A stretch of DNA of 64,000 nt, from assembly GCA_965153355.1 (NCBI GenBank), contig OZ231126.1, positions 37,882,001 through 37,946,000 on the forward strand, in the 5' to 3' direction. The stretch's first letter is position 1; each line of letters opens with the position of its first letter. The translations under genes and the position numbers were made by a program. Of the stretch, positions 7,841 through 46,837 are shown piece after piece. Origin of the DNA: Flaccisagitta enflata. Lineage: Eukaryota. The notes under the pieces were generated by a model. It was not told the origin of the DNA and did not search any database. It saw nothing but the letters and a program-made list of their open reading frames with translations.

Positions 7841-8008
7841 TTTTTAGTTGCGGACACGCAACTCTGTAAGATGCTTTGTCCGTTGGTCCGTTCGTCCGTC
7901 CGTCCGTCCGTCGGTCCATGGTGATCGAGTTAGAAAGTGTAAAACCGCGCATTTCCGCCCCTGCCCACCCGTCCGCAACTGGTATTGGCTGTGTATCCGA
8001 ACTTATTT
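7841..8008 (+). mobile_element. Helentron-associated interspersed element (HINE/DINE-1-like)
   Basis: TTTTT-AGTTGCGGACACGCAACT 5' palindrome, (GTCC/GTCG)n, CCCCTGCCCACCCGTCCGCAACT 3' subterminal repeat and terminal hairpin. Confidence 0.75.
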
Positions 8009-31866: not shown

Positions 31867-33042
31867 TATATATCATGAAAGATTATCCATTCAGTTGTTG
31901 ATAATGGTTTTTCACGCTAGGGCCGCTGCATCAGTATGCGTGGAATCCCTGCTATTGGGATAAAATGAAAAGAGAAATTATGGAGGGAACAAAAAAAAAC
32001 GCGCAAAAATATTGGGAAAGAAAAAAAAAGAGAAAAAATGCAAAAACTGGCATTTAATTCGAATTTTGAAGATTCAGTTCCCCTCCAAAATTCTCGTAGA
32101 TGTGACGTCTGGGTTTTTGTTTGTCTGTCTGACTCTCTGTTTGTTTGTTCGGCTTTTTCTGTCTGTTCCTTTCTTCCTATCAGACACTCAAGATTCTTTA
32201 GCCTTTTTGCAATTCTCCATTCATAGTTTCCAAGGTTATGGAGGCAAAATGAAAAAAAAAGCTTGAAAAGAAGAGAAACAGAATGGCACCATGTCTACGG
32301 AGAAAAAGAATGTAAGAAGTTTGAAGACATTCAATAAAACATCGTCAAGAAACTCAAGTAGTTCGCAAAAACAATTCCGCAGTCCAGTGATGCTACAGGA
32401 GCAAGATCAAGTATTGAAAATCAAACTCGTTTTGAATTAATCTTTTTCCAAATCATGTTGAAAGAGTTCATTTCCGTTCGTCCGTCATTGTGTTGTTTTT
32501 CGTTGGACAAATCCCCCGGCGTACATGTAGAGCCATTGTTACGGGCAACTAACCAGGAAATACAGTAGATCGCGTCTAGACTTGAGATAACGGGGGCATG
32601 CATTGTAGGAAAAAGAATGAAGCTAAGGCACTGATATTTGGAATATAAACTAATAAGATAATATTTCATTGCCCATGATAGTTGGTTACCATGGAAACGC
32701 ATTTTCATGTATTTACTCTAAAATATCAACATTTTGAGGAAATTTTTAAGGGAACATTGTTAAAAACAAGTTTTCTAGAACTTTCCCACAGTATGTGCTG
32801 TCAGAATATCGCTTGTTCAGCGGTTGCTAGGAGTTGTCACACATGGATATGCTCACTAGCTATGGCCAAATGAGCGATATTCTTACAGAACATATTGTGG
32901 GAAAGCTGTGTAGCACATTTGATTTTAAGCAATGTTCTTTAAAAAATCTCTCAAAATATTGATATCTTAGCGAGAATACATGGAAATGTGTTTCCATAGC
33001 AACCGAGTATCATATGAAATAAATCATTCTTTTAATAGTGTA

Positions 33043-33831
33043 TGTGACATTCTTCACATTCCCCACCATATGCAGGCCTAGAAGCGCTCGATCGGACGCA
33101 TTCGACTCCGCGGATCCCGAAGAAGAGGAGGGGCTCTCTCGCCATCGAAAATCCAAGATGGCGTCTGCTCGACTGCAGAGTGGAGGAAATCGAGGAAGAA
33201 GGAGAGAGATCTTCGATCGACGGAGGAAGGGGAGGAACGCGCGCGCGCACCGGAAGCGCTGACTTCCGGTTGAGGATTGATGAACTATATCTCCTCAACC
33301 GCTTAGAGGAGAAAAGACTTCGACCCCTCTATCGAATTCCCACGACGTGACGAATCTATTTATCATTGTTTCATTGCTGCCAAATAATTTCAAATCTCGT
33401 GATGTTTTGATTCATTTTTTGTTATTTCCAGGTTAAGTAAAAGTAGCTTCCCTGACTTTCTTACTGACATTCGATTACACGATCTCAGTTAAAGACTCGA
33501 TTTTTGATGCTTTTTCCCCGACTTCCCTGCCCTGCGCCTAGATTGGAAACCGTTCGACAACATCCGTGTAAGTCCTTGACCTTTTATCATTTTGGCGCCA
33601 TACAAGAGTATCCTTCATTGATGTACAGAGCTTGTCCTAACCTTTTTCCTTTTTCTCTGTCCGTCAGGATTCCACGAATAGACTGATTTCGCGGACAACT
33701 TGACCGCTCATCTCAACAATTCGTTCTAAGCGGGTGTGCGTTCCAAATCATTAGCGCAGCTACGCAGTGGAGTCAGTTCTCGCGATTACGCATCAGGAGC
33801 TTGCTAAGAAACTAGACGCTAAACGATCTCA
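33043..33831 (+). repeat. 5' LTR (789 bp)
   Basis: TGTGACATT...CGATCTCA; by eye identical to 44690-45479 except one T-run indel (~33590) and one G/A substitution (~33606). Confidence 0.97.
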
Positions 33832-33843
33832 ATTCGTGGAATC
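33832..33843 (+). promoter_or_regulatory. Putative primer-binding site of non-tRNA (self-complementary) type, ATTCGTGGAATC
   Basis: Directly abuts the 5' LTR, lacks the leading TGG of tRNA PBSs, and is the exact reverse complement of 33668-33679. Confidence 0.7.
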
Positions 33844-33875
33844 AAAAACCATCAACGATCCACGCAACGTCAACG

Positions 33876-36800
33876 ATGTCGACCGCCAACAACAACGCCA
33901 ACGCCGACGCGATGTCAATGCCGCCACCTTCGCTGCCCAATCAACGCAGAAAAGCCTTTCGGCCAACCGACTGCGTGTCCGTCGTTTCCGACTCATCCGT
34001 CTACGCGGGCGCAATGGACCCCGTGGCTACGACGCTTCGCGGATTACGAAAGGCGCTACGCAACACGCGCAACGCCTACATGTCGGCGTTGAAACAAGCC
34101 GATACCCTCAACGACGATGATATATTGGACTTTTACCAAGATATGGACTGCCTTCGAAAGGAAGTGTGGTTGGCGGCGTGGCGACTTGTCAACCAGACAA
34201 AGACTTACTCACATGCAGAGTCGACCAACAACCCCGACAAAGCGGCGTCACTGTTATCGACGGCCGAAAGCTCATTGACGGAAGTACGGAAACTGTGGGA
34301 CCAATCATGCTTCCACGACAAAAACACTTTTGCGTCGCATTTATTCCTGCCGACCTACCACGACATCCACGACGAGTCACCGGAGACTGGAGCAAAACGC
34401 GCTCTCGAGATGACGATGGGGTCGTCGACGCATTTCGTCCAGTCCCTTTCACGACGACGCAAATCGACGCCGAACACGACCGGCGACGATGGAGACGCGG
34501 GAGAGGACGACTTGCCCGTCGGTACGGAAGCAGCGAATCTCAATGCAGCGGATCAACGTCACAACGCGCCGCCCCATACGCCAGGCGCGATAGAAGACGC
34601 CGAGCAGATACGTATAAACTTTGAACCTCCGACGCCGGTGACGCCGGCGAGGTCGCGCTTCTTGTCGGCCAGACGACGCGATGGAAACGTCATGGCCGAA
34701 CGACGACGCCGACCTCCCTCCAGGCGCCGTTGGCGGCGCCCCTCCCACACAAGATCTTCTCAACATGCTACAGCAGTCGATTGTCGACGGCGACAAAAAC
34801 GCTCAAGGCGACGCGATGGTGCACGTCGTCCAACGTCTTGTCAACGACGTCAACCAAGTTCGACGCTCGGTGGCGAGAGAAGCACGCGCAAATACGCGAT
34901 TCCGTCTCAGCTCGCAGTCTGTATCTCAACAACGCGAAGAGAACGCCCGGCAGTTGACGGCAAACATCGCATTAGACGCAGCCGTTACTGCCCGGACAGA
35001 CGCGGTCACGGCCGGAATTGACGAGAGGAAAAGAAGGGAGGAGGAGGAGAGGAGGAAGAAAGAGAAGGAGGAGGAGGAGGAAAGACAACGCATCCACGCT
35101 GAAGAAGTGAGAAGGAAGGCAGAGGAGACGAGAAAGGAGCAGGAGGAGAAAAGGAGGACGAACTTGAAAAACAAGATCGCACAGGAGAAAAGAGAGAAAG
35201 AGGAGAGAGAGGAAAAGAAAAGGAAAGAAGCAGAGAGGAAAGCAGAGGAGGAGAGAAGGAAGGCGGTGGCAAAAAGAGACGCGGAAGAAAGAAAGAGGAT
35301 GGAGGAGAAGAAAAGACGCGAAGAAAAGAAAAAGGAGGAAGAAAAGAAAAGGAAAGAGGAGAGGAGGAGAGGAAGAGGAGAGAGGCACAAAAGAAAAGCC
35401 AGCAGAGACAACTACCTTCCAAAACGCCACCCCCAGCCGCACGTGAACATCCTCTCCACGAGCAACTGCGCACGAGACAAGATGCAGCGGAGCAAGAAAG
35501 AACGCGATGGATCACGCGGACGCAATGGCAAGGGTCCAACAATTGATCAGCGACCTCAACCTGGAGGACAGTGTCGTTTTGCAGACACGTGCTCCACCGT
35601 GTAAATCGACGCCGCCATCACCAAGCTCACCCATCATCGTCCGCCAGATCGCGGGTGATCTTCCAGCTCCGCAAGCATCCCGAAATGCACGCGGGAGTCA
35701 GCGGCCCCTGGTCGACGACGTCTTCGATGACGAGGGGTTCGAACGCGTCGACAGACGGAAGTCGAGGAAGACGCCGCCCCCAACGCCGTCGCCTCCTACG
35801 TATCAAAGACGTCAAACCGGAAGTGACTCCGCGCGAAATGGCCTCGCGCATTCGCAGTCCTTCGCCGAGAGGATGAACGCAGCCTCTTTCATCGACAACC
35901 CAATCGCCTACGACGCCCGCGTCAGAGCAAAGGACGTGGGATTGAGGGAAATGCGCGCAGCACGTCCAAGAGAAGCGTATGGATACCTCGAGCCGATCGA
36001 CTATATCATTGCCAAGTCTAAATTCGAAAATGCCGCCTCCAACATCGAGCTAGACGAAATCGACAAAGTAACTGAATTGGCCAATGTCTTCGCGAATCCA
36101 GCGAAGGAAATTATCGACGGTCAACAACTCATCATCAAGGCGCACAACATGCGCCGTGTCTACAGCACCTTGTGGAGACGCCTGGACGAGATGTTCAACA
36201 CGAGCGCCAACCCATTCCAATCGGCCGTCGACAGCATCTGCAGGAAAGGAAAGGTTCCGGAAAACGATATGAGAGCCCATCAATCATTGATTGGCACGTT
36301 GTACAAACTGGAAAACGTCGCAGAATTGCTGAATGTACCTGGAGAGTGTGATCGTGACGTCCACATCCGCCGCATCATCAACGCGAGGGTGCCACACATC
36401 TCGACGGACTATTGGAAAGCGAGCGCGCGTGAACAAGCTCGCCATGGCACGGCTTACGGCTTCCAAGAACTCATCGAGGAGGTGAAGCATTGGGTGTCGT
36501 ACAACAACCTCAAAGAACCAACACGCATGGCGCCAAACCAACGAAGGTTGCAGCGACTGCAGTTGGTCCGGCGACGTTTAAGGAACAGCTCGTCAACTCA
36601 CCTCCGAAGCAGCAACCCAACGACATCTGCAATATTTGTGGAGGTCGTCACAATTCTCATTCGTGTCAACGTTTTGGAAGCCATCCCATCAGCAGAGGAT
36701 CGTGTGAAGAAGTTGGCGGAGAAACGTCTATGCTTTCATTGTTTCTGCCCAAACCATTCGGCGCGCGACTGCAAAGACAAGCCAACATGCTCATCTTGCA

Positions 36801-36997
36801 ATAAGAGACACGCAACTTTGCTGCACGACCGCCAATTCAAGCCAAAAGGGAATGGAGAAGGAATCACGTTCAAGACGCCGAATGCCGCCGCATTAGCCGC
36901 AGCCGCTGCCGCCGCCAAAACCGTTCCTCCAGCGCCCCCAAGCAGCTCGTCGACGGATGACTCTGCATCTGATGAAGGAAGAGTGATGGAGGCGTGA
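33876..36997 (+). CDS. gag: BEL/Pao Gag, about 1040 codons, interrupted by ~5 single-base frameshifts
   Basis: ATG 33876; E/K/R coiled-coil at 35020-35400; helical core with LWRRLDEMF; knuckles CNICGGRHNSHSC, CFHCFCPNHSARDC, CSSCNKRHATLLH (36627-36826), the triple-knuckle pattern of BEL/Pao. Confidence 0.85.
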
Positions 36998-39900
36998 CTC
37001 GCTGCCACCTCCGCGATGAGGACGGTGGTCGCGAGGATGATGTCACGCGACCGATTGTTCCTGTAAAAATCACCAACGCATCGACGGGCCGTTCCACCGT
37101 AGTGTTGGGGATGATTGACAGCGGTGCGGATTGTGACGTTTTATCGCTTCAAATCGTTAACAAATTAGACTTACCAACTGAAAAGATGCTGATGCGCGTG
37201 CATACGGTCAATTGTGAAGTGGTGGAGGAGAAAGTTTTGGCGTCCTTTATCCTTTCATCGATTGACGAGGAATACAACGTCCACATCAGCAACGCACTAA
37301 CGGGAGAGTTATTGACGGGTGAAGCTGATATTGCTCCATGCCAACGCGACTTCACAAATCAATCTCATCTTCGCGATATTCCATTTCCAAAAGCAAATGG
37401 TCCTGTCCAATTGATCATCGGCGCCGCCCATTACGACGCGACGATGCCTGTGGAGGCAAGAAGAGGTCCATCAGGATCTTTGACAGCCTTCAGATGCGGT
37501 TTTGGATGGACTGTAGCAGGGAAGAGTGGACGAAGATCAGATGATACCGCTGTCATTAACGCAATCCACGTGGATAACGTCGCATTGAGCAAATCTCTCG
37601 ACCGCATGTTCTATCACGACTTCGCCATTGTGTCGGAGGAAGAAATGGGCCAGTCTGAAGAGAATCGTCGCGCGGTGAAGCGGGTGATGGAGACGATATA
37701 CTTCGACGAGAAACTCCAAAAATACGTCGTGGGACTTCCATGGCGCTATGACAAGGAGAAGATCATCGAGATTATCAAGTCTGTCAACGCACGCGCGATG
37801 ACGATTAAGAGGACAAAAAGTCTCCGATACAAACTCTCAAATAATCATGACCTCCGCGATCGCGTCTTCAAAGAAATGGACAAATTTGTGGATACGGGCG
37901 TGGCGATTGAGATTGATCCGACGAATGACGACGCAAGCATCTCATCGCCCCACTGGTACTTACCCATCCATGTGGTGGAGGAAAGAAATAAAACGCGGAT
38001 TTGTCACGATGGACGCGCGGAGACTGGCGGCATTTGCCTCAATGAACTACTGATTGGAGGTCCGAATATCATGAACGTCTTGACTGAAGTTCTTATGAAA
38101 TTTCGCCTTTATAAAATCGGTCTGATGACTGATATAAAGGCGTTCTTTCATAATGTCCGCGTCCATCCTGAGGACGCGGACACGTTCAGATATATGTGGT
38201 TCACTGACAAAAGCATGAGAGAGGCAGTCGTGATGCTCTTCTTGGCGCACATTTTTGGATCTGTGTCATCGAGTCTCGTCACCAGCTATGTTTTACGCCA
38301 TCACGCGGAGAAGATCAAGCCCGACTTCCCGAAAACGTCTACGAAATGTTGAGGCATGCCTTCTACGTTGATGACGGCTCTGGTGGTGCGGATTCAGTCG
38401 ACTAAGCACTGCAGTTGAAGCAGGATCTCATCGCCGCCATGAAGAGCGGCGGATTTACTTTGACTAAGTGGAAGTTTAACGCGGTGGAGGTGATGGACGA
38501 GATCCAATGTCGCGGTCACTTGAGCGCCCAACTTGAGGAGCCGACGAAGGTCTTGGGAGTCCAATGGTTGCCGTCGACGGACTGCTTCATCTTCAGATGC
38601 GATCCAGAAGCATGCAAGAGGGTGGCAACGACTCCTCGCGAATTGGTCTCCATGCAAGCCGACAACTATGATCCACTGGGATTCACAGCGCCCCGCGCCC
38701 TTGAAGGGAGGAGGTGTCTTCAGTTGACGAGAGCTTCCGAGAAGGGATGGGATTCGACGATGGAGGAGGCGTTAATCAAACGTTTCGCCAAATGGTACTC
38801 TGCGACTCCATTGCTGATCCAAATTGAAATTCCGCGCCACATTGAATGGGGCATTGTGAAGGCCGTTCGACGAGAAGTTCACATCTTCTGCGACGCCGCC
38901 ATCCCTGGTTTGGAGTAGTGGGCTATTGGTTGGTGGAAGATGAGGATGGAACAATCTGCTACCATTTTGTGCGCCTAGGCTCACGTCGTCCCTCTTGATG
39001 CGTCAAAAGCGTCGCACCACAACTCGGTGCCGAGGTTAGAAATGACAGCGGCAGAGAAAGCGGTGAAACTCAAACTTTTCATCAAGAGGACCATTCCAAA
39101 GGTGACCGAGGATATGGTGACGCTCTGGTCGGATTCAGAGGCGGTGCTGAAGATGATTTTCGACCATAAATCTAAACGTCCGAGCTTCTTCGCAAACCGA
39201 CTTTCAAAATCCACAGCGGCTCAAGCGATTCTCAATGGAGGTGGGTTGATTCGGAGAATAACCCCGCTGGACTATTGTTCGCGGGGTATTGACGCCAGCG
39301 ATAAAGAAAAATGGGACATCTTCCATTTCGGTCCGAAGTTTCTCTACCTTCCCAAATCTGAGTGGCCGGTGATGAATATCGCGACGGCGCCGGAGGCGTC
39401 AATCAACGCCGTCGCGACAGAAACGGTGGAGGAAGAGGAAGGAGAGAAGGAGAAGGAAATGTTCGCCTATGCAGTCGCCGCCCGTCGCCAGGAGTGGGTG
39501 GCGAAATTGCGTTTGATCGCCGTGATTGTGAAGTGCGCGCAGCGATGGAGACAGAAGGTGAAGGCAAAAACTAGAGCAGCGGCGACGACGCTGCCAAATC
39601 CATACTCTGTATCTATGGCTGAATTGTACGACGCACAACGCCGCTTGATCAACGCAATCCAGTTCAAACATTTCCATGGAGAATAACTAAGTTGAAGCGG
39701 TGGGAAAAACGACGCCGCTCATCAACGACGCCGGCGCCAAAGTGATCTGTAAGACTCTACGCCATCACAATCCGGTTGTCGACGAGAAAGGAACGATGCG
39801 TGTCGGGAGCAGACTTGTGAATGCGGATATTGGCCATGATGAAAAATACCCGATGATTCTCCCGTCGAAAGATCCAAACGTCGCTTCTCTGATTCGCCAT

Positions 39901-41002
39901 GTCCATCATCAGGATCTTCACGCAGGCCCAAAACACGTCTTGTGCCAACTGCGACGCTTTGTGTGGATTCTTCGAGGTCTCCAGGCGGTAAAAACAGTCA
40001 TCCACCATTGCGTTACGTGCCAAAGGAACTTCAAAGATCCTATGAAGCAGCAGATGGCGCCTCTTCCTCAACGTCGGCTCATTCCAACGGCGCCTTTCGA
40101 GGAGGTGGGACTCGACTGCATGGGTCACTTCCTGGTGAAACTGAACGGAAGGGCGGATCATAAGGTCTGGGCAGTGGTGTTTACCTGCATGGTTTCGAGG
40201 GCGGTGCATGTGGAGGTGTTGTTTAAAATGGACACAGAGGCAATGATCAACGCCATCATTAGATTCGCAGCGAGACGGCAAACGTGCGTCGATTCATATC
40301 AGACTGTGGCACCAACCTGGTTGGGGCAAATCGCGTCATGAAGGAGGAGATGCAGTCGTGGAACGCGTCGTCGACAGTGGCTCTGCAGCAGCATGGACTC
40401 CAATGGGACTTCATTCCTCCGGGGACTCCTCATTACGGCGGCGTATGGGAAAGGGTCGTATCCCTTTTCAAAAAACATTTGGCGTCCATTACTTCCGGTC
40501 ACGTGCTCCATTACGACGTCTTCCAAACGGTTGTGATTGAGGTGGAAGGAATTCTCAACCGTCGACCTCTCACGCCTTTGAGCGACGATCCTAGCGATAC
40601 ATCAGCGCTGAGGCCGGTCAACATCTTGCATCCGTCTACGTTCTCACACTCGTCGGCAGCTATTCTTCCTCCAAAGACCGGAAACGACGCCGTGGGAACG
40701 AGATGCCGATGGAGAAACGCACAGGCCCGCGTTGACGCCTTCTGGAAGGTATGGCGCGCCGAATACCTTCAGTTGCTGCACGCAAGGAGCAAATGGACAA
40801 AATCGGAAGTGAATATCAAAAAGATGCATTGGTCATCATCGTTGACGAGACGCTTCATCGGCATCAGTGGTCTTTGGGACGCGTCGTCGAAGTGGAAGGA
40901 TCTGGTGGTCATGTCCGGAAAGCACAGATCCTACGCCCCGACGGCAAGATTGTTCTCAAGGATCGGTCGAAGATCGTCCGATTGGAGCTGGATCCAGATT
41001 AA
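36994..41002 (+). CDS. pol: BEL/Pao Pol (aspartic protease, RT, RNase H, integrase), interrupted by several frameshifts and one in-frame TAA (38403)
   Basis: PR GMIDSGA (D at 37117); RT WYLPIH, KTRICHD, LNELLIGGP, DIKAFFH, FG, YVDD (38364-38375); RNase H HIFCDA, PRLE, WSDS, NPADYCSRG; IN H..H..C..C, GLDCMG, ISDCGTN, GGVWER, FWKVWRAEYL. Confidence 0.93.
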
Positions 41003-41547
41003 AAACGGATAAGTGTGAAGAGAGAGAGAGAAAGTAGACCAGAGAGAAGCACAAGTGTTTCTATTTGTAAAGACTATACATGAAAATGAGGATTTTTTCT
41101 CTCATGATTATTTTTTGGTCTTGTTTACTTTTTCTCAGTCGGTCTGTCTGATATGTCTTTGTGTGTAATGACAGGAGAGAGAGAGGTACATGGTGCCCCA
41201 GTCAGTTGAGAATGTCTGCATGATTGACTGACAATCTAAATTTTGCCATGCCATTTCAATCTTGTATTGACCATATAAAGGCATTTGTTCGTCATTTTCT
41301 TTTCCGTTTTATCCATATCATTGACTGTTGAGTGTGGAGGTCATTTGAGGCGCTGATCGAAGAGTTTTTATTTCTTTGTCTGCGTATACCATTTAATCTT
41401 CCTCAATGTTAATGGATATGTCTTCCTCTTTCCGTTTGGTTACATCTCGAAATCTGAATTTTCTCCAAAAACAGGCGTTTACACTATCTTACGCTAAAAG
41501 CTTCCCCTTGTCGGTATCGTCGCATAACTGTTGCAGAGAGATCCATC

Positions 41548-43875
41548 ATGTCGCAGCAGAACAACCAAGGCACGCCGGACGAGATCCGCGAAGCGAGGAG
41601 GCAGCGAATGGCGCAAGCCCAGGCCGATTTGGTGAGGAGTCATGAGGAGGAGACGAGGAGGATGGAAGAGGAGCGGGCGAGGGTGGAAGAGGAGAAGAGG
41701 AAAGTGGAGGAAGAGAAGAAAGACCCGGAGAAGAAGAGGAGGAGACAGGAGCAGGAGGCCAGGGCAGCGTCCCTCAGAGAACAACGCAGGCTTCGCGGGT
41801 TGCAACAGTCCGTCGTTGGAGGAGCTGATGACGTCATCGACGGGGTCAGCCATCTCTTCAACGACTCGTCTTCCGGCGCGTGGACCGTTACGGACCCTAT
41901 TCCTGCTCGGGCCCTCAACGCGTTCGATGCCAACGCCTTTGCCGACAAGCGCGCCGCCGGTGAAGCGCGTCGTCAAGCCGACGATGCGCTCCAGGCGGCA
42001 AGAAAGGCGAAAAGAGAACAAGCTGCCAACGAAAGCTTCGATACGGCAGTTTCGGGAGTGGAGGCGCTCATGGGGGAGTCAACGTCGGACTCCACCACGG
42101 ACGCCCCCCCGCCGCCACGCGGAGCAGAGGAAGTGGAGCGACAAGATTTGAATGACCCTGACAACTTAGACTTTGACGATGACGATTTACGACGACGACG
42201 ATGATGACGACTACGACTCAGGATGACAGTGAGGGCGATGATATGGACACTAACGAACATGACGGAAGGGGAGAGGGACTTCCCCCCGGGAGGTTGCTCG
42301 ACCCGCTTCTACAGGCCCCCAAGGGGTACTTACTGCTCCTTCTCTTGCTCCCCACCTGCCGCCGCCGCAGACGTCGCAGGCGGTCGTGGAGTCGCCGACG
42401 TTACAAGTAACGCCGGCCGCAGACTCGACCGCGCCGGCGCCGTTTCAAGCATCACCTGACGCGACGCTGGTGATCCCGCCGCACATCAGTGACCTGTCCT
42501 CCATCTCGCAGGAACAAGCTGTCGAATTGGTGAAGATCTACAACGCCCAAGTCGACGCCCTCATCGAGCGGAAGCACACTGCGATATACCACGACACGCA
42601 GCGTCGCTTACGCGCGGAGAGAGATGCTCTTCATCCACAAGCCGAGCGAAGAGCATATGTTCCGACGCAAAGAGTCAGAGACGAATTAGTCGAAGAGGAC
42701 GGAGAGATGGCGACGGTTGAAACACGCGAGACGCTCCAATTGTGCAAGATCATCAACATCAGATCTATTGGAGCAACGGCGGACATGGGAAATGGGACTT
42801 TGAGAGACATTTCCCGCGGAAAAGCCTCAAATCAGAGAAAAAGACGACGTGAAGGAGCCGCTCGTCGGATCGCGGAGGCTATTCGTTCGACCGGAAGTGG
42901 CAGCGATCAGCGTCAGACGCCCGCGACGCAGGATCCTCCACAACATCATCCGAGAGACGATCGACGAGCCAAAGCTGGCGCCAACAATCTACAAATCGAA
43001 GTGAGAGAGAAGAGACGTCGGGTGAGCAGGGGTGGACCGCCGGATGCATCCGCATCGCATCATCGACGGTGATGGATGGTCCCGCGAGATTACCACATGG
43101 TCCTGCTCCCCGGCCTCCTCCTCCTCAACGCCAGCGGTCACGTGACATTTCACCAATCCGTGTCCCAACCCAAACGATTTACGACAACGGATAATCAAGG
43201 TGGCGCTGGGGCAGCCGCAAATCTGCTCCCCCTCCTCCTCCTCCTGTCAACGACCAACAGCGACGAGAGGAGCAAAACGCCAACAAAAAGAAGAGGAATC
43301 GTCGTCCAAAAAGGAAGTCTGGGGATGCGTCGACGTCCAACAGGTCGTCAACGTCGACTGCATCCGCTTCTTCTCCTTCACATCGCCCTCCCCGATCGCC
43401 GGAAGACCTTCTGACCGAGGCGATGTTGGCCGTCGCCATCAAGTTGCCAAGTCATCCTCGGTCAAAGGATATTCAAAAGGTTGTAGACATTCTTCCGGCG
43501 GCATTCTATCCCAACTCATCTCCGATGGATCGCGCGATCTACGCTGCCGATCACGCCGTGGATAGAGCCAGATCGGCGAGGAAGCTCATCGAACAATACA
43601 ACTTTAGGATGAAGGTTGTCGGTGAGCACGACGCGAAAGTTGCTCAGATGGCCCAGCTGCTGTCCGACGCGAAGAAGGAAGCCGACCGCGTCCGCGCGGA
43701 GTTCTCTCAGCCCGATGGACAGATGCCATCGACTTCCGGGACTCAACGCCACTTCGCGTCGTCGAGCAACAACGCGCCACCTTCCGGCAGAAACCCCCCT
43801 CCACGCCACAGTAGGAAAGACGACGCGCCATCCTATCGTGGAGGAAAGGGCGGCAGGGGTAAAGGCCGGAAGTAG
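41548..43875 (+). CDS. Accessory ORF3 of the retrotransposon, unknown function, about 775 codons when ~5-6 frameshifts are bridged (track pieces 41548-42204, 42201-, 42386-43072, 43423-43875)
   Basis: GC-rich coding-like block between two AT-rich spacers; ATG in catcATGt; coiled-coil N-terminus, acidic and Pro-rich linkers, basic clusters, C-terminal RGG tail; no signal peptide or TM segment. Confidence 0.65.
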
Positions 43876-43990
43876 AGGGTCTCGTCGCCATGATCCCGGC
43901 CATCGTCTTCCCACTTCAATCGCGCGTATCATACCGACGTTTCACGTCGTCGCGGAAGACTAGCGGTTGATCATCCAATGGCGACTCGAG

Positions 43991-44997
43991 ATGCTTCCGG
44001 TGACGGACAGGCCGGCCGTCCTCGCTTCTCTAGAGGGCGGTCGGGGGAGGGGGTCCCACCGGGGACCCCCCTGCGACTCTCCCGCGTAAGTGTCGAGGGG
44101 TAGGGGGGGTCTTGAATTGCTCATGAATCAATTGTACCAAATTAGAATATTAAGCGTATGATTTGAGAATGAGAATCAGTTCTAACTCTCCTAATCCGTT
44201 TCTCCATACCCATTCCGGGTGTCAGGGACGTACGTGCTGGAGTGATGGACAATCCTAACGGGGCGTTGGTACGTAGTATAGTATAGTTTATACACTAGTA
44301 TAGGCCACTTAGCGTATAGTCTAATTATTTATTTCAGTCCATCATTCCCGTGGATCTAGTATCGTTACCTTTTTTCTTGTTTTAGCATGAAGACTGGATG
44401 CAGAATGGAGCAAGAGGAGCAATTCATAACCAGACCGTAGCGATAGCCCGGACAATCGACGGTGGTAGGTGTTTCTGCTCCTAGAACCCATTTTCTGAAT
44501 CGTCTTATTCGCGCGAGATCCACGATATTTATAATAGCGTCTTTGTAATATTTAAAAATTTTGTTTTTGAGATGAGCCCCGGATGTTGTCATAGCTTGTA
44601 AATTTTTAAAATGAACGGTATTCCCTGACAAGAAACTAGTTAGATACGAGATTTGAAATTTTTTTGGCAAATATTTCAAATGGGGGGACTGTGACATTCT
44701 TCACATTCCCCACCATATGCAGGCCTAGAAGCGCTCGATCGGACGCATTCGACTCCGCGGATCCCGAAGAAGAGGAGGGGCTCTCTCGCCATCGAAAATC
44801 CAAGATGGCGTCTGCTCGACTGCAGAGTGGAGGAAATCGAGGAAGAAGGAGAGAGATCTTCGATCGACGGAGGAAGGGGAGGAACGCGCGCGCGCACCGG
44901 AAGCGCTGACTTCCGGTTGAGGATTGATGAACTATATCTCCTCAACCGCTTAGAGGAGAAAAGACTTCGACCCCTCTATCGAATTCCCACGACGTGA
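43991..44997 (+). CDS. Hypothetical spliced ORF4: exons 43991-44085, 44226-44268, 44386-44464, 44723-44997 (163 aa, or 125 aa from ATG 44245); last exon lies in U3 of the 3' LTR
   Basis: Three GT-AG introns (GTAAGT..CTAAC..CAG; GTACGT..TTTTAG; GTAGGT..TGCAG) whose phases keep one frame open to TGA 44995-44997; exons GC-rich, introns AT-rich. Confidence 0.4.
44678..44689 (+). promoter_or_regulatory. Polypurine tract (AAATGGGGGGAC)
   Basis: G-run immediately upstream of the 3' LTR TG; preceded by hairpin ATTTGAAAT(44651)...ATTTCAAAT(44681). Confidence 0.8.
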
Positions 44998-45479
44998 CGA
45001 ATCTATTTATCATTGTTTCATTGCTGCCAAATAATTTCAAATCTCGTGATGTTTTGATTCATTTTTTGTTATTTCCAGGTTAAGTAAAAGTAGCTTCCCT
45101 GACTTTCTTACTGACATTCGATTACACGATCTCAGTTAAAGACTCGATTTTTGATGCTTTTTCCCCGACTTCCCTGCCCTGCGCCTAGATTGGAAACCGT
45201 TCGACAACATCCGTGTAAGTCCTTGACCTTTTATCATTTTTGGCGCCATACAAAAGTATCCTTCATTGATGTACAGAGCTTGTCCTAACCTTTTTCCTTT
45301 TTCTCTGTCCGTCAGGATTCCACGAATAGACTGATTTCGCGGACAACTTGACCGCTCATCTCAACAATTCGTTCTAAGCGGGTGTGCGTTCCAAATCATT
45401 AGCGCAGCTACGCAGTGGAGTCAGTTCTCGCGATTACGCATCAGGAGCTTGCTAAGAAACTAGACGCTAAACGATCTCA
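44690..45479 (+). repeat. 3' LTR (790 bp)
   Basis: Near-identical to the 5' LTR; followed by TSD GTGTA. Confidence 0.97.
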
Positions 45480-46837
45480 GTGTATATTCCAAATATTAGC
45501 CCACTAGCTTCATTTATTCTTCCATAATGCTTGCCCCCGTTATCTCAAGTCTAGATGAGATCTACTGTAGCAAATTCAGATTGTACCGAAGAAGCAATAA
45601 TATTTCTGCGGTTTCAAGTTTCTGGTATTATTGTGTTTTTCTATCCCAATTCATTTTTCGTTTCTTTCCTTCGAAGGAAAGACAGAAATCCAATTATATC
45701 CCACGGAGAATTGCTCCTGCTTGATGCGAAAAATGCACATTGCACAAATGAATTTGGCAAATTCCTTTGCCTTGCATTTTCCTTCAGGCTTCTTTTGCTT
45801 CCTTCTTTTTTTCTGTTTCTTTTTCTTTTTCTTTTTTCTTTGTGTTTTTTTTTTTCATGATTCTGCTTTTTATCATGTTTTAATCCCCCGTTTCTCCATC
45901 TTTTTTTATCATTCCATTGATATTTGATGCCTTCCTCTTCTTATTAAGCTTAAGCTCTCTTGTTATTTTTTCACGTTCTTTGCCATTTCACATCAACGTC
46001 TTCCGGTTTGAAGGTTATTACTAAAGTTTGCAGACATTCAAAAATCAAACAAGCTGACGATAGAAGTTAAACTGGTAGTGATGATAAAACATCACTAACG
46101 AGCCATGCTTCTCTCATAGTTCTCGTTGATATCTAAATTTGTACCTTCCGCTTCCGGATCCATCATCAGATGGGGAGTGGGTGGGGGTCCCTTCTTTATC
46201 CTAGACGCTGTCCCCTTCCACGCATATCAATCTCGCACCAGTCCGCCCCAGAGAAAAAACTCGTTCGCTCCTAGGGTGAGGCTACATCGTCAAACCAATT
46301 ATTTTGATGCTAGTCTACCACTTTCTACATTTAATCTGCCCATCTCCTTCATAACCCTGGAAAGACAGCAACGCAAAGCAAAGAGAAGAAAAGCAAAGAA
46401 AAGAGAAGCAAAGCAAAGCAAAGCATAGAAAAGAGGAGCAAAATAAAGTCAGTTAAAACTGTAACTGAAACAAAGCAAAATGAAGTCAATTAAAACTGAA
46501 ACTGAAACTCTGAAAAAGATAGGGAAAAAACAAGGGGAAAAAAAGAGGGGGGGAAAAGGGAGAAAAAAAAAGAACCGGAGTCATTGTATCTGTAGGTTTT
46601 CTCTCATCAATCAATGCCATCAACGTTTTTTCCTCTCTTTTTTCAAACGCTATCTTTCGGCGAGGGAGCGGAGAAGGGAGGGGGGGGGGTTGGGAAAAGA
46701 GGGGGCAATGGTGATGATTCAGCTCGCGTAGAATATATCCATCATTTTTGGGCAAAGAGACCCAAAACCGACAAAGCTTCATTATTTTTCGTTTTAACGA
46801 AACTCGAGTATCACCGCTTGTCCTCTCTATTTTAAGT

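Follow-up and report, generated by a model that had tools for sequence, protein, structure and literature searches.

What sets the 5' boundary of a primer that a retrotransposon carries in its own RNA is the question raised by a locus of Flaccisagitta enflata (contig OZ231126.1), where a 12-nt putative self-primer inside a long terminal repeat (LTR) begins exactly at the base that follows a splice-acceptor-like CAG. The boundary might be set by the start of transcription, or it might be set by the spliceosome, either through removal of the 100-nt intron-like segment that ends there or through the joining of a spliced leader. In the 64-kb window (the whole stretch of DNA analysed, 64,000 nucleotides, with the features named below lying on its plus strand unless stated otherwise), the former answer is the one preferred here, with about even confidence: positions 33666-33668 would form the U3/R border of a self-priming BEL/Pao element, working in the manner of Tf1 and Tf2. 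Real splicing, with the cis and trans forms taken jointly, appears somewhat unlikely.

The element and its coding capacity

The LTR retrotransposon spans positions 33043-45479 of the window, a length of 12.4 kb. Its 5' LTR (33043-33831, 789 nt, TG...CA) is a direct repeat of the 3' LTR (44690-45479, 790 nt), in which the copy of the intron-like segment lies at 45215-45315 and that of the 12-mer at 45316-45327. The two LTRs are 99.7% identical and differ at two places only, a T-run indel at 33590 and a G/A difference at 33606. The insertion is flanked by the 5-bp target-site duplication GTGTA (33038-33042 and 45480-45484), and a polypurine tract, AAATGGGGGGAC (44678-44689), is found directly 5' of the 3' LTR.

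The first open reading frame, of 381 aa (33876-35021), opens at the first ATG after 33621 and has no Pfam match; it is followed by a gag-like ORF with Cys-His knuckles and then by protease (DSGA), reverse transcriptase (RT), RNase H and integrase (35447-41012), as judged by Pfam and the translations. Because of its Pao-type Pfam domains and the order of its translated gag and pol parts, the element is assigned to the BEL/Pao LTR retrotransposons: Peptidase_A17 (Pao), Integrase_H2C2 and DUF5641 are all matched, and the domains run PR-RT-RH-IN between TG..CA LTRs with a target-site duplication. This identity is observed directly, and it means that the pol is not of the Ty3/gypsy type found in the Tf1/Sushi clade. 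The BEL/Pao superfamily is known only from animals.

The element is unusually long because of extra ORFs before gag (33876-35604) and after pol (41458-43875), whose products are charged, rich in Glu, Lys and Arg, coiled-coil-like and without Pfam match. In this copy pol is interrupted: against it, the continuous proteins of relatives shift frame near 38325-38335 and continue through the stop or stops at 38919-38978. The copy may be young yet defective, and possibly mobilised in trans.

The protein relatives number 23, all of them unnamed sequences from ENA and MERC assemblies; the nearest Atlas protein clusters are mostly arthropod, and parts of the element are present in marine metatranscriptomes from several studies. 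P0012 and P0013 are abundant relatives (31 and 18 member sequences, respectively) that encode proteins of ~560 aa; the match of these is limited to the protease part and the end of the integrase, corresponding to element regions 37033-37716, 39462-39683 and 40219-40999, and they may be internally deleted derivatives.

The putative self-primer and its binding site

The primer-binding site (PBS), ATTCGTGGAATC (33832-33843), starts 0 nt after the terminal CA of the 5' LTR and is complementary at 12/12 positions to the putative self-primer GATTCCACGAAT (33668-33679), which bears out the claim of the first-pass annotation that G33668 is the first base of a PBS-complementary 12-mer. Exact copies of the 12-mer occur three times in the window, namely once in each LTR and once as the PBS on the minus strand, and with one mismatch at least four matches were reached in 0/100 shuffles. 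Such a PBS, which adjoins the 5' LTR and can pair with a sequence inside the LTR, is the arrangement of Tf1-type self-priming.

In Tf1, Tf2 and Tj1, according to the portions of PMC5341516 and PMC4600332 drawn on here, the self-primer lies in R at the mRNA 5' end and anneals to the PBS; RT then cleaves it from the RNA and extends it through U5 and R. The likeness to these elements of S. pombe (Tf1/Tf2) and S. japonicus (Tj1) consists, as far as those portions go, in a PBS directly after the 5' LTR that is complementary to a short LTR sequence. The present element shares this, with an exact match of 12 nt and ~150 nt between primer and PBS. It differs in descent, since Tf1, Tf2 and Tj1 form the Tf1/Sushi group of Ty3/gypsy whereas this one is BEL/Pao, with a predicted start and a predicted cut. 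It differs further in the splice-acceptor-like consensus that adjoins the primer, a feature not met in descriptions of Tf1-type elements, the comparison having been made by description and not by sequence.

The 12-bp pairing could alternatively be a structural stem of the leader, with the RNA starting elsewhere in the LTR, another primer in use and the splice-like signals present by chance. The stem appears in both the MFE and the centroid folds of 33666-33870, and the overall stability of that fold is ordinary (z = -1.17), so that the whole leader is not unusually stable, which is counted in favour of this alternative. TATA-like sequences at 33286 and 33357, together with AGTAAA at 33436, would allow a different layout of U3, R and U5, and a report of BEL/Pao self-priming was not found in the literature searched. 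Against it, the complementarity is exact over 12 bases and sits at the obligatory position of a PBS, where no plausible tRNA 3' end would match: a tRNA pairing with the bases after the LTR would need a very AT-rich acceptor end, which is unlikely judging from the bases themselves. Moreover, with R ending near 33460 the 12-mer would fall in U5 without an evident role. We consider a purely structural stem quite improbable. A self-priming layout with R near 33390-33460 was rejected, in that the strong-stop DNA would be left after the cut without homology at the RNA 3' end.

Further copies of the arrangement were sought in several collections. Within the window, blastn found no LTR copies beyond the two of the element. 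The pattern of primer, gap and PBS gave 0 matches in viral contigs and 0 in genome contigs, and its sole match in metagenome contigs, L001, was discarded as a non-relative, being a bacterial contig of high GC content whose inverted repeat is unrelated. At L001:3243-3433 the same 12-mer lies inside a ~29-nt imperfect inverted repeat with a 130-nt AT-rich spacer, a chance match. A protein-guided search, with an alignment of 12 sequences (the query and 11 of the 23 relatives), returned 64 pattern matches in viral contigs and 26 in genome contigs, none of which was confirmed as a relative.

The intron-like segment

The segment that ends at the primer is 100 nt long (33568-33667) and comprises GTAAGT (33568-33573), a branch-like CTAAC (33637-33641), a pyrimidine tract (33641-33665) and CAG (33665-33667), all of which are found in the sequence as first annotated. 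The branch-like A of CTAAC is located 27 nt upstream of G33667, and 18/20 bases 5' of the CAG are C or T. GT...AG ends, donor consensus, branch site, pyrimidine tract and CAG/G are thus all present, as in a spliceosomal GT-AG intron, and these signals are a matter of observation.

Acceptors with at least 18/20 pyrimidines and YAG number 21 in 128 kb (the window on both strands), or ~1.6e-4 per position, and the one ending at 33667 is the strongest on the plus strand of the element. Two further acceptor-like sites annotated at the outset, ending at 33431 and 33541, do exist and are weaker (15/20 pyrimidines). A composite was defined as GTRAGT, a CTRAY branch 15-40 nt upstream of the acceptor, at least 16/20 pyrimidines and YAG, with a length of 40-500 nt. 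It occurs four times in the window, two of these being the LTR copies, compared with a simulated mean of 0.9 per 128 kb (100 first-order Markov simulations) and an expectation of ~0.006 per LTR strand, and these rarity figures overstate the significance because the signals were selected post hoc. An intron-like appearance combined with an end at the first base of the primer is statistically unusual, although part of the coincidence would be explained otherwise by the predicted start site described below. In the window outside the element, 0/10 large ORFs, sought as host genes with which to calibrate splice signals, reached the Pfam cut-off.

These signals could belong to a genuine cis-spliced intron. 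Transcription would then start upstream of 33568, for example at the perfect initiator TCAGTT with A33487; GTAAGT at 33568 would be the main donor, used either with the acceptor at 33668 or with more distant ones (41139, for instance), and the genomic RNA would be the unspliced form and the mRNAs the spliced ones. Such a start is possible because 33568 is the sole early donor and strong acceptor-like sites exist at 41138 and 44385; apart from the GTAAGT at 33568, no consensus donor occurs in the 5' 2 kb of the element, and the leader 33668-34300 contains none. In addition, each of the four signals (donor, branch, tract, acceptor) agrees with its consensus, their spacing is typical, and the composite is one that chance would rarely produce. 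Nevertheless, a cis-spliced intron offers no explanation for the exact coincidence of its 3' end with the primer start. It would also place the primer ~180 nt inside the RNA, which should give a non-matching tail on the plus-strand strong-stop DNA, and the ATGs at 33507 and 33621 would sit in the transcript. Weighed together with the RNA contigs discussed below, cis-splicing seems rather unlikely.

Of the distal sites, the strong acceptor-like one at 41138 (41109-41138) lies after pol and before the extra ORFs 41458-43875, and that at 44385 belongs to a second intron-like pair in the 3' non-coding part, GTAAGT at 44086 ... TTTTAG at 44385, of 300 nt. On these sequence features, the 3' ORFs may be expressed through splicing.

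The acceptor might also serve trans-splicing, by which a host leader would be joined at G33668 and R would in effect start there; the cut after the 12-mer would discard the leader along with the primer, and the strong-stop DNA would match the 3' R. That the strongest acceptor-like site of the element falls exactly at the primer start agrees with this, and the weaker acceptor-like sites and T/C-rich sequence upstream resemble an outron. Also in its favour are the mainly arthropod nature of the closest protein clusters and the presence of the element in marine metatranscriptomes, given that calanoid copepods are described as trans-splicing in the part of PMC4664967 concerned. On the other side, an Rfam scan of the window found no SL RNA gene (0 matches); a tRNA scan of the window gave 0 matches as well. 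The consensus donor that lies 100 nt upstream would point to cis-splicing instead, the same acceptor in the 3' LTR would need to be ignored, and a leader 5' of the primer would be expected to be copied into the plus-strand strong-stop DNA. Trans-splicing at G33668 is therefore viewed as very improbable.

A precedent for both forms of splicing is Cer1 of C. elegans, whose spliced mRNA occurs with and without SL1 and whose genomic RNA skips the splice sites, as stated in the portion of PMC3315495 drawn on here. The likeness, on the strength of that portion, is that of an LTR retrotransposon that can make genomic RNA only by bypassing its consensus splice sites: in Cer1 the mRNA is spliced while the 8-kb genomic RNA passes over consensus sites, which supports the possibility of a cis-spliced intron here, and the ability of an LTR-element mRNA to carry SL1 supports that of a trans-spliced leader. 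Against the latter, the full-length genomic RNA of Cer1 is not trans-spliced (PMC3315495, same portion). Cer1 differs in being Ty3/gypsy, and in that portion of the report self-priming is unmentioned and the splice sites are not placed in the LTR or beside a primer. The present element differs in turn by the lack of spliced RNA among the three metatranscriptome contig sets compared. PMC9911081 mentions LTR retrotransposons and trans-splicing without linking them.

Variation within the segment

Both differences between the LTRs fall within 33568-33667, at the two positions given above (2/2, p = 0.016), in agreement with the first-pass annotation. The same concentration is seen in RNA contigs: in X2 record 12, 6/6 differences over 316 nt covered lie within the 100-nt segment (p = 0.001), and in X5 record 15 at least 12/23 do so (p = 0.03). 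The segment is thus either under relaxed constraint or fast-mutating at its T-runs, since the differences concentrate there. A hypervariable patch at 33581-33606 holds ~10 variant events in 26 nt, counted over the two contigs and the two LTRs, and the flanks 33505-33567 and 33668-33825 are conserved in the two contigs.

In contrast to this variable interior, neither the 5' splice-site region 33568-33580 nor the surroundings of CTAAC show a change in 2/2 contigs, a point in favour of cis-splicing. GTAAGT, CTAAC, CAG and the 12-mer are likewise unchanged in both; yet the probability that ~14 variant events miss 14 signal bases is ~0.12, which is not significant, and the constancy of the splice signals in two contigs is therefore no more than chance allows.

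A 5-nt direct repeat, TCCGT (33563-33567 and 33660-33664), brackets 97 nt of the segment, which might have arisen long ago by insertion or duplication. Recombination that removed the DNA between the two TCCGT copies would look like loss of an intron, although 97 nt and not 100 nt would be missing.

Evidence from RNA

The region 33000-34500 was compared with four runs, namely the assembled contigs of three metatranscriptomes (X1, X2 and X5) and a raw polyA RNA run (X15). In the raw run, 0/12.16 million reads match the element, and hence it has no bearing on splicing or on the start. In the contigs of the three metatranscriptomes, 0 splice joints were found, and no leader-like loose end is seen at 33668; the former counts against cis-splicing and the latter against trans-splicing. 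Positions at which molecules begin or end likewise numbered 0 in these contigs. Two contigs from two studies, X2 record 12 (33502-33817) and X5 record 15 (33505-33825), cross 33568-33667 unspliced. This result argues weakly against splicing and is silent on the start site, because minor forms are lost and RNA ends are invisible in assembled contigs, and the assembler joins U3-R reads to R-U5 reads by way of R.

A further contig (X1 record 2) stops exactly at 33568, the last base common to the spliced and unspliced forms, both of which continue with G. This is in line with cis-splicing, and it is a weak hint because the coverage of X1 is patchy elsewhere too.

Both LTRs of the young copy keep the segment, and therefore the RNA behind this copy was unspliced in its 3' LTR. 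The earlier annotation also reasoned, with sound logic, that if splicing is real it must spare the segment of the 3' LTR in genomic RNA. That annotation had offered splicing or an initiator as the two possible accounts of the segment, of which splicing has found no support in the contigs (0 joints, two unspliced contigs) and the initiator fits better, with TCAGGA, GGACA at +28 and an ATG-free leader, and with the requirement of Tf1-type priming that the primer lie at the RNA 5' end.

The predicted start site and the 3'-end signals

The initiator-like TCAGGA (33664-33669) overlaps the CAG of the putative acceptor and has a predicted +1 at A33666. It keeps the TCAG core of the initiator (Inr) consensus TCAKTY and agrees with it at 4/6 positions, +3 and +4 being mismatched. 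A DPE-like GGACA (33693-33697) is situated at +28 to +32 from A33666 and fits RGWYV; such a DPE-like match accompanies 1/11 TCAK sites in the LTR, against an RGWYV background of 2% per position. The two consensus sequences, TCAKTY for the Inr and RGWYV for the DPE, are those given in the relevant passages of PMC1538597 and PMC3601003. An MTE at +18 to +27 was also considered and set aside, the sequence, read by eye, not fitting. The likeness to TATA-less promoters with Inr and DPE, known from arthropod genes and retrotransposons, lies in the TCAG core with A+1, in RGWYV at +28 and in the lack of TATA at -30; the difference lies in the misfit to TCAKTY at +3 and +4, and the consensus is an arthropod one that may not be the host's. 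Furthermore, no ATG occurs in 33622-33875, and the probability of finding no ATG in 208 nt is 0.08 across the window and 0.05 inside the element.

Downstream of the predicted start, AATAGA (33677-33682) is a poly(A)-signal-like hexamer that we take to be a minor variant (AAUAGA in RNA), one of two such hexamers in the LTR, the other being the AGTAAA at 33436. Canonical AATAAA is not found downstream of 33668. A U-rich tract lies 13-40 nt upstream of AATAGA (33677), and GU-rich GGGTGTGCGTT (33732-33742) may be a putative downstream poly(A) element marking the R/U5 region. Poly(A) enhancers exist in the U3 of retroviruses.

From these signals we infer a start site, a primer cleavage and a role in polyadenylation that would be linked as follows. 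RNA polymerase II would start at TCA(+1)GG, with the RNA 5' end at or 2 nt before GATTCCACGAAT. The 12-mer at this end would fold back onto the PBS (33832-33843), the RNase H of the element would cut after the 12-mer (33679/33680), and the freed 3' end would prime minus-strand synthesis through U5 and R. An RNA 5' end at the primer is favoured because extra 5' bases would, on the Tf1 scheme, yield a plus-strand strong-stop tail that mismatches the PBS region; R must in turn include bases after 33680 because the strong-stop DNA needs, after the cut, homology at the RNA 3' end. The 100-nt 'intron' would be the promoter-proximal last 100 nt of U3, untranscribed from the 5' LTR and present in the RNA only in its 3' UTR, with CAG forming part of the initiator and GTAAGT and CTAAC being incidental. 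The U-rich tract might aid 3'-end formation at the weak AAUAGA. Being transcribed from the 3' LTR alone, the tract would not accompany the 5' copy of R and could act only at the 3' LTR.

If CAG and the tract are functional for these reasons, the coincidence left, that of GTAAGT and CTAAC, amounts to a few per cent, a rough estimate from motif frequencies. Several observations speak against the preferred account, with its start at 33666-33668: the match to the Inr is partial, the likeness to an intron is above chance with its end at the primer start, GTAAGT at 33568 stands alone as an early donor with strong acceptor-like sites further in, X1 record 2 stops at that base (a weak point), and a canonical AATAAA is lacking.

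Relation to known self-priming elements and possible implications

In the literature searched, the only elements credited with self-priming are Tf1/Sushi and Tcn1 among gypsy elements and TAR among copia elements, according to the passages of PMC6317226 that treat it. An ascription of self-priming to BEL/Pao was not found in that literature, which was non-exhaustive and consisted of portions of PMC6317226, PMC5445492, PMC5443660 and PMC3601003. By analogy, the present element may work like Tf1, yet outside that clade.

If the self-priming reading is true, the element is a clean, young Tf1-style example in BEL/Pao, of modest value in itself, and the start of the primer marks the U3/R border without RNA data. 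Should the acceptor be in use, which we regard as unlikely, the spliceosome and not initiation would set the 5' boundary of the primer, through trans-splicing at G33668 or removal of the 100-nt intron. In that event, the self-priming cut would strip foreign 5' sequence and leave R matching at both ends. Use of the splice signals would tie RNA processing to the onset of reverse transcription and would bear on how retroelements cope with trans-splicing hosts, as a way to live there; use of the acceptor would give a first instance of an LTR element whose priming step incorporates splicing.

Other repeats in the window

A dispersed repeat of ~87 nt is present in the window in 12 copies, at 7841, 15842, 18011, 23071, 28747, 48512, 49424, 52941, 62691 and other positions. 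It starts with TTTTTAGTCGCG...GCGACTCTA, a small hairpin, which is followed by a (GTCC/GTCG)n tail, and from its sequence it looks like a SINE or MITE. Microsatellites are very abundant in the window.
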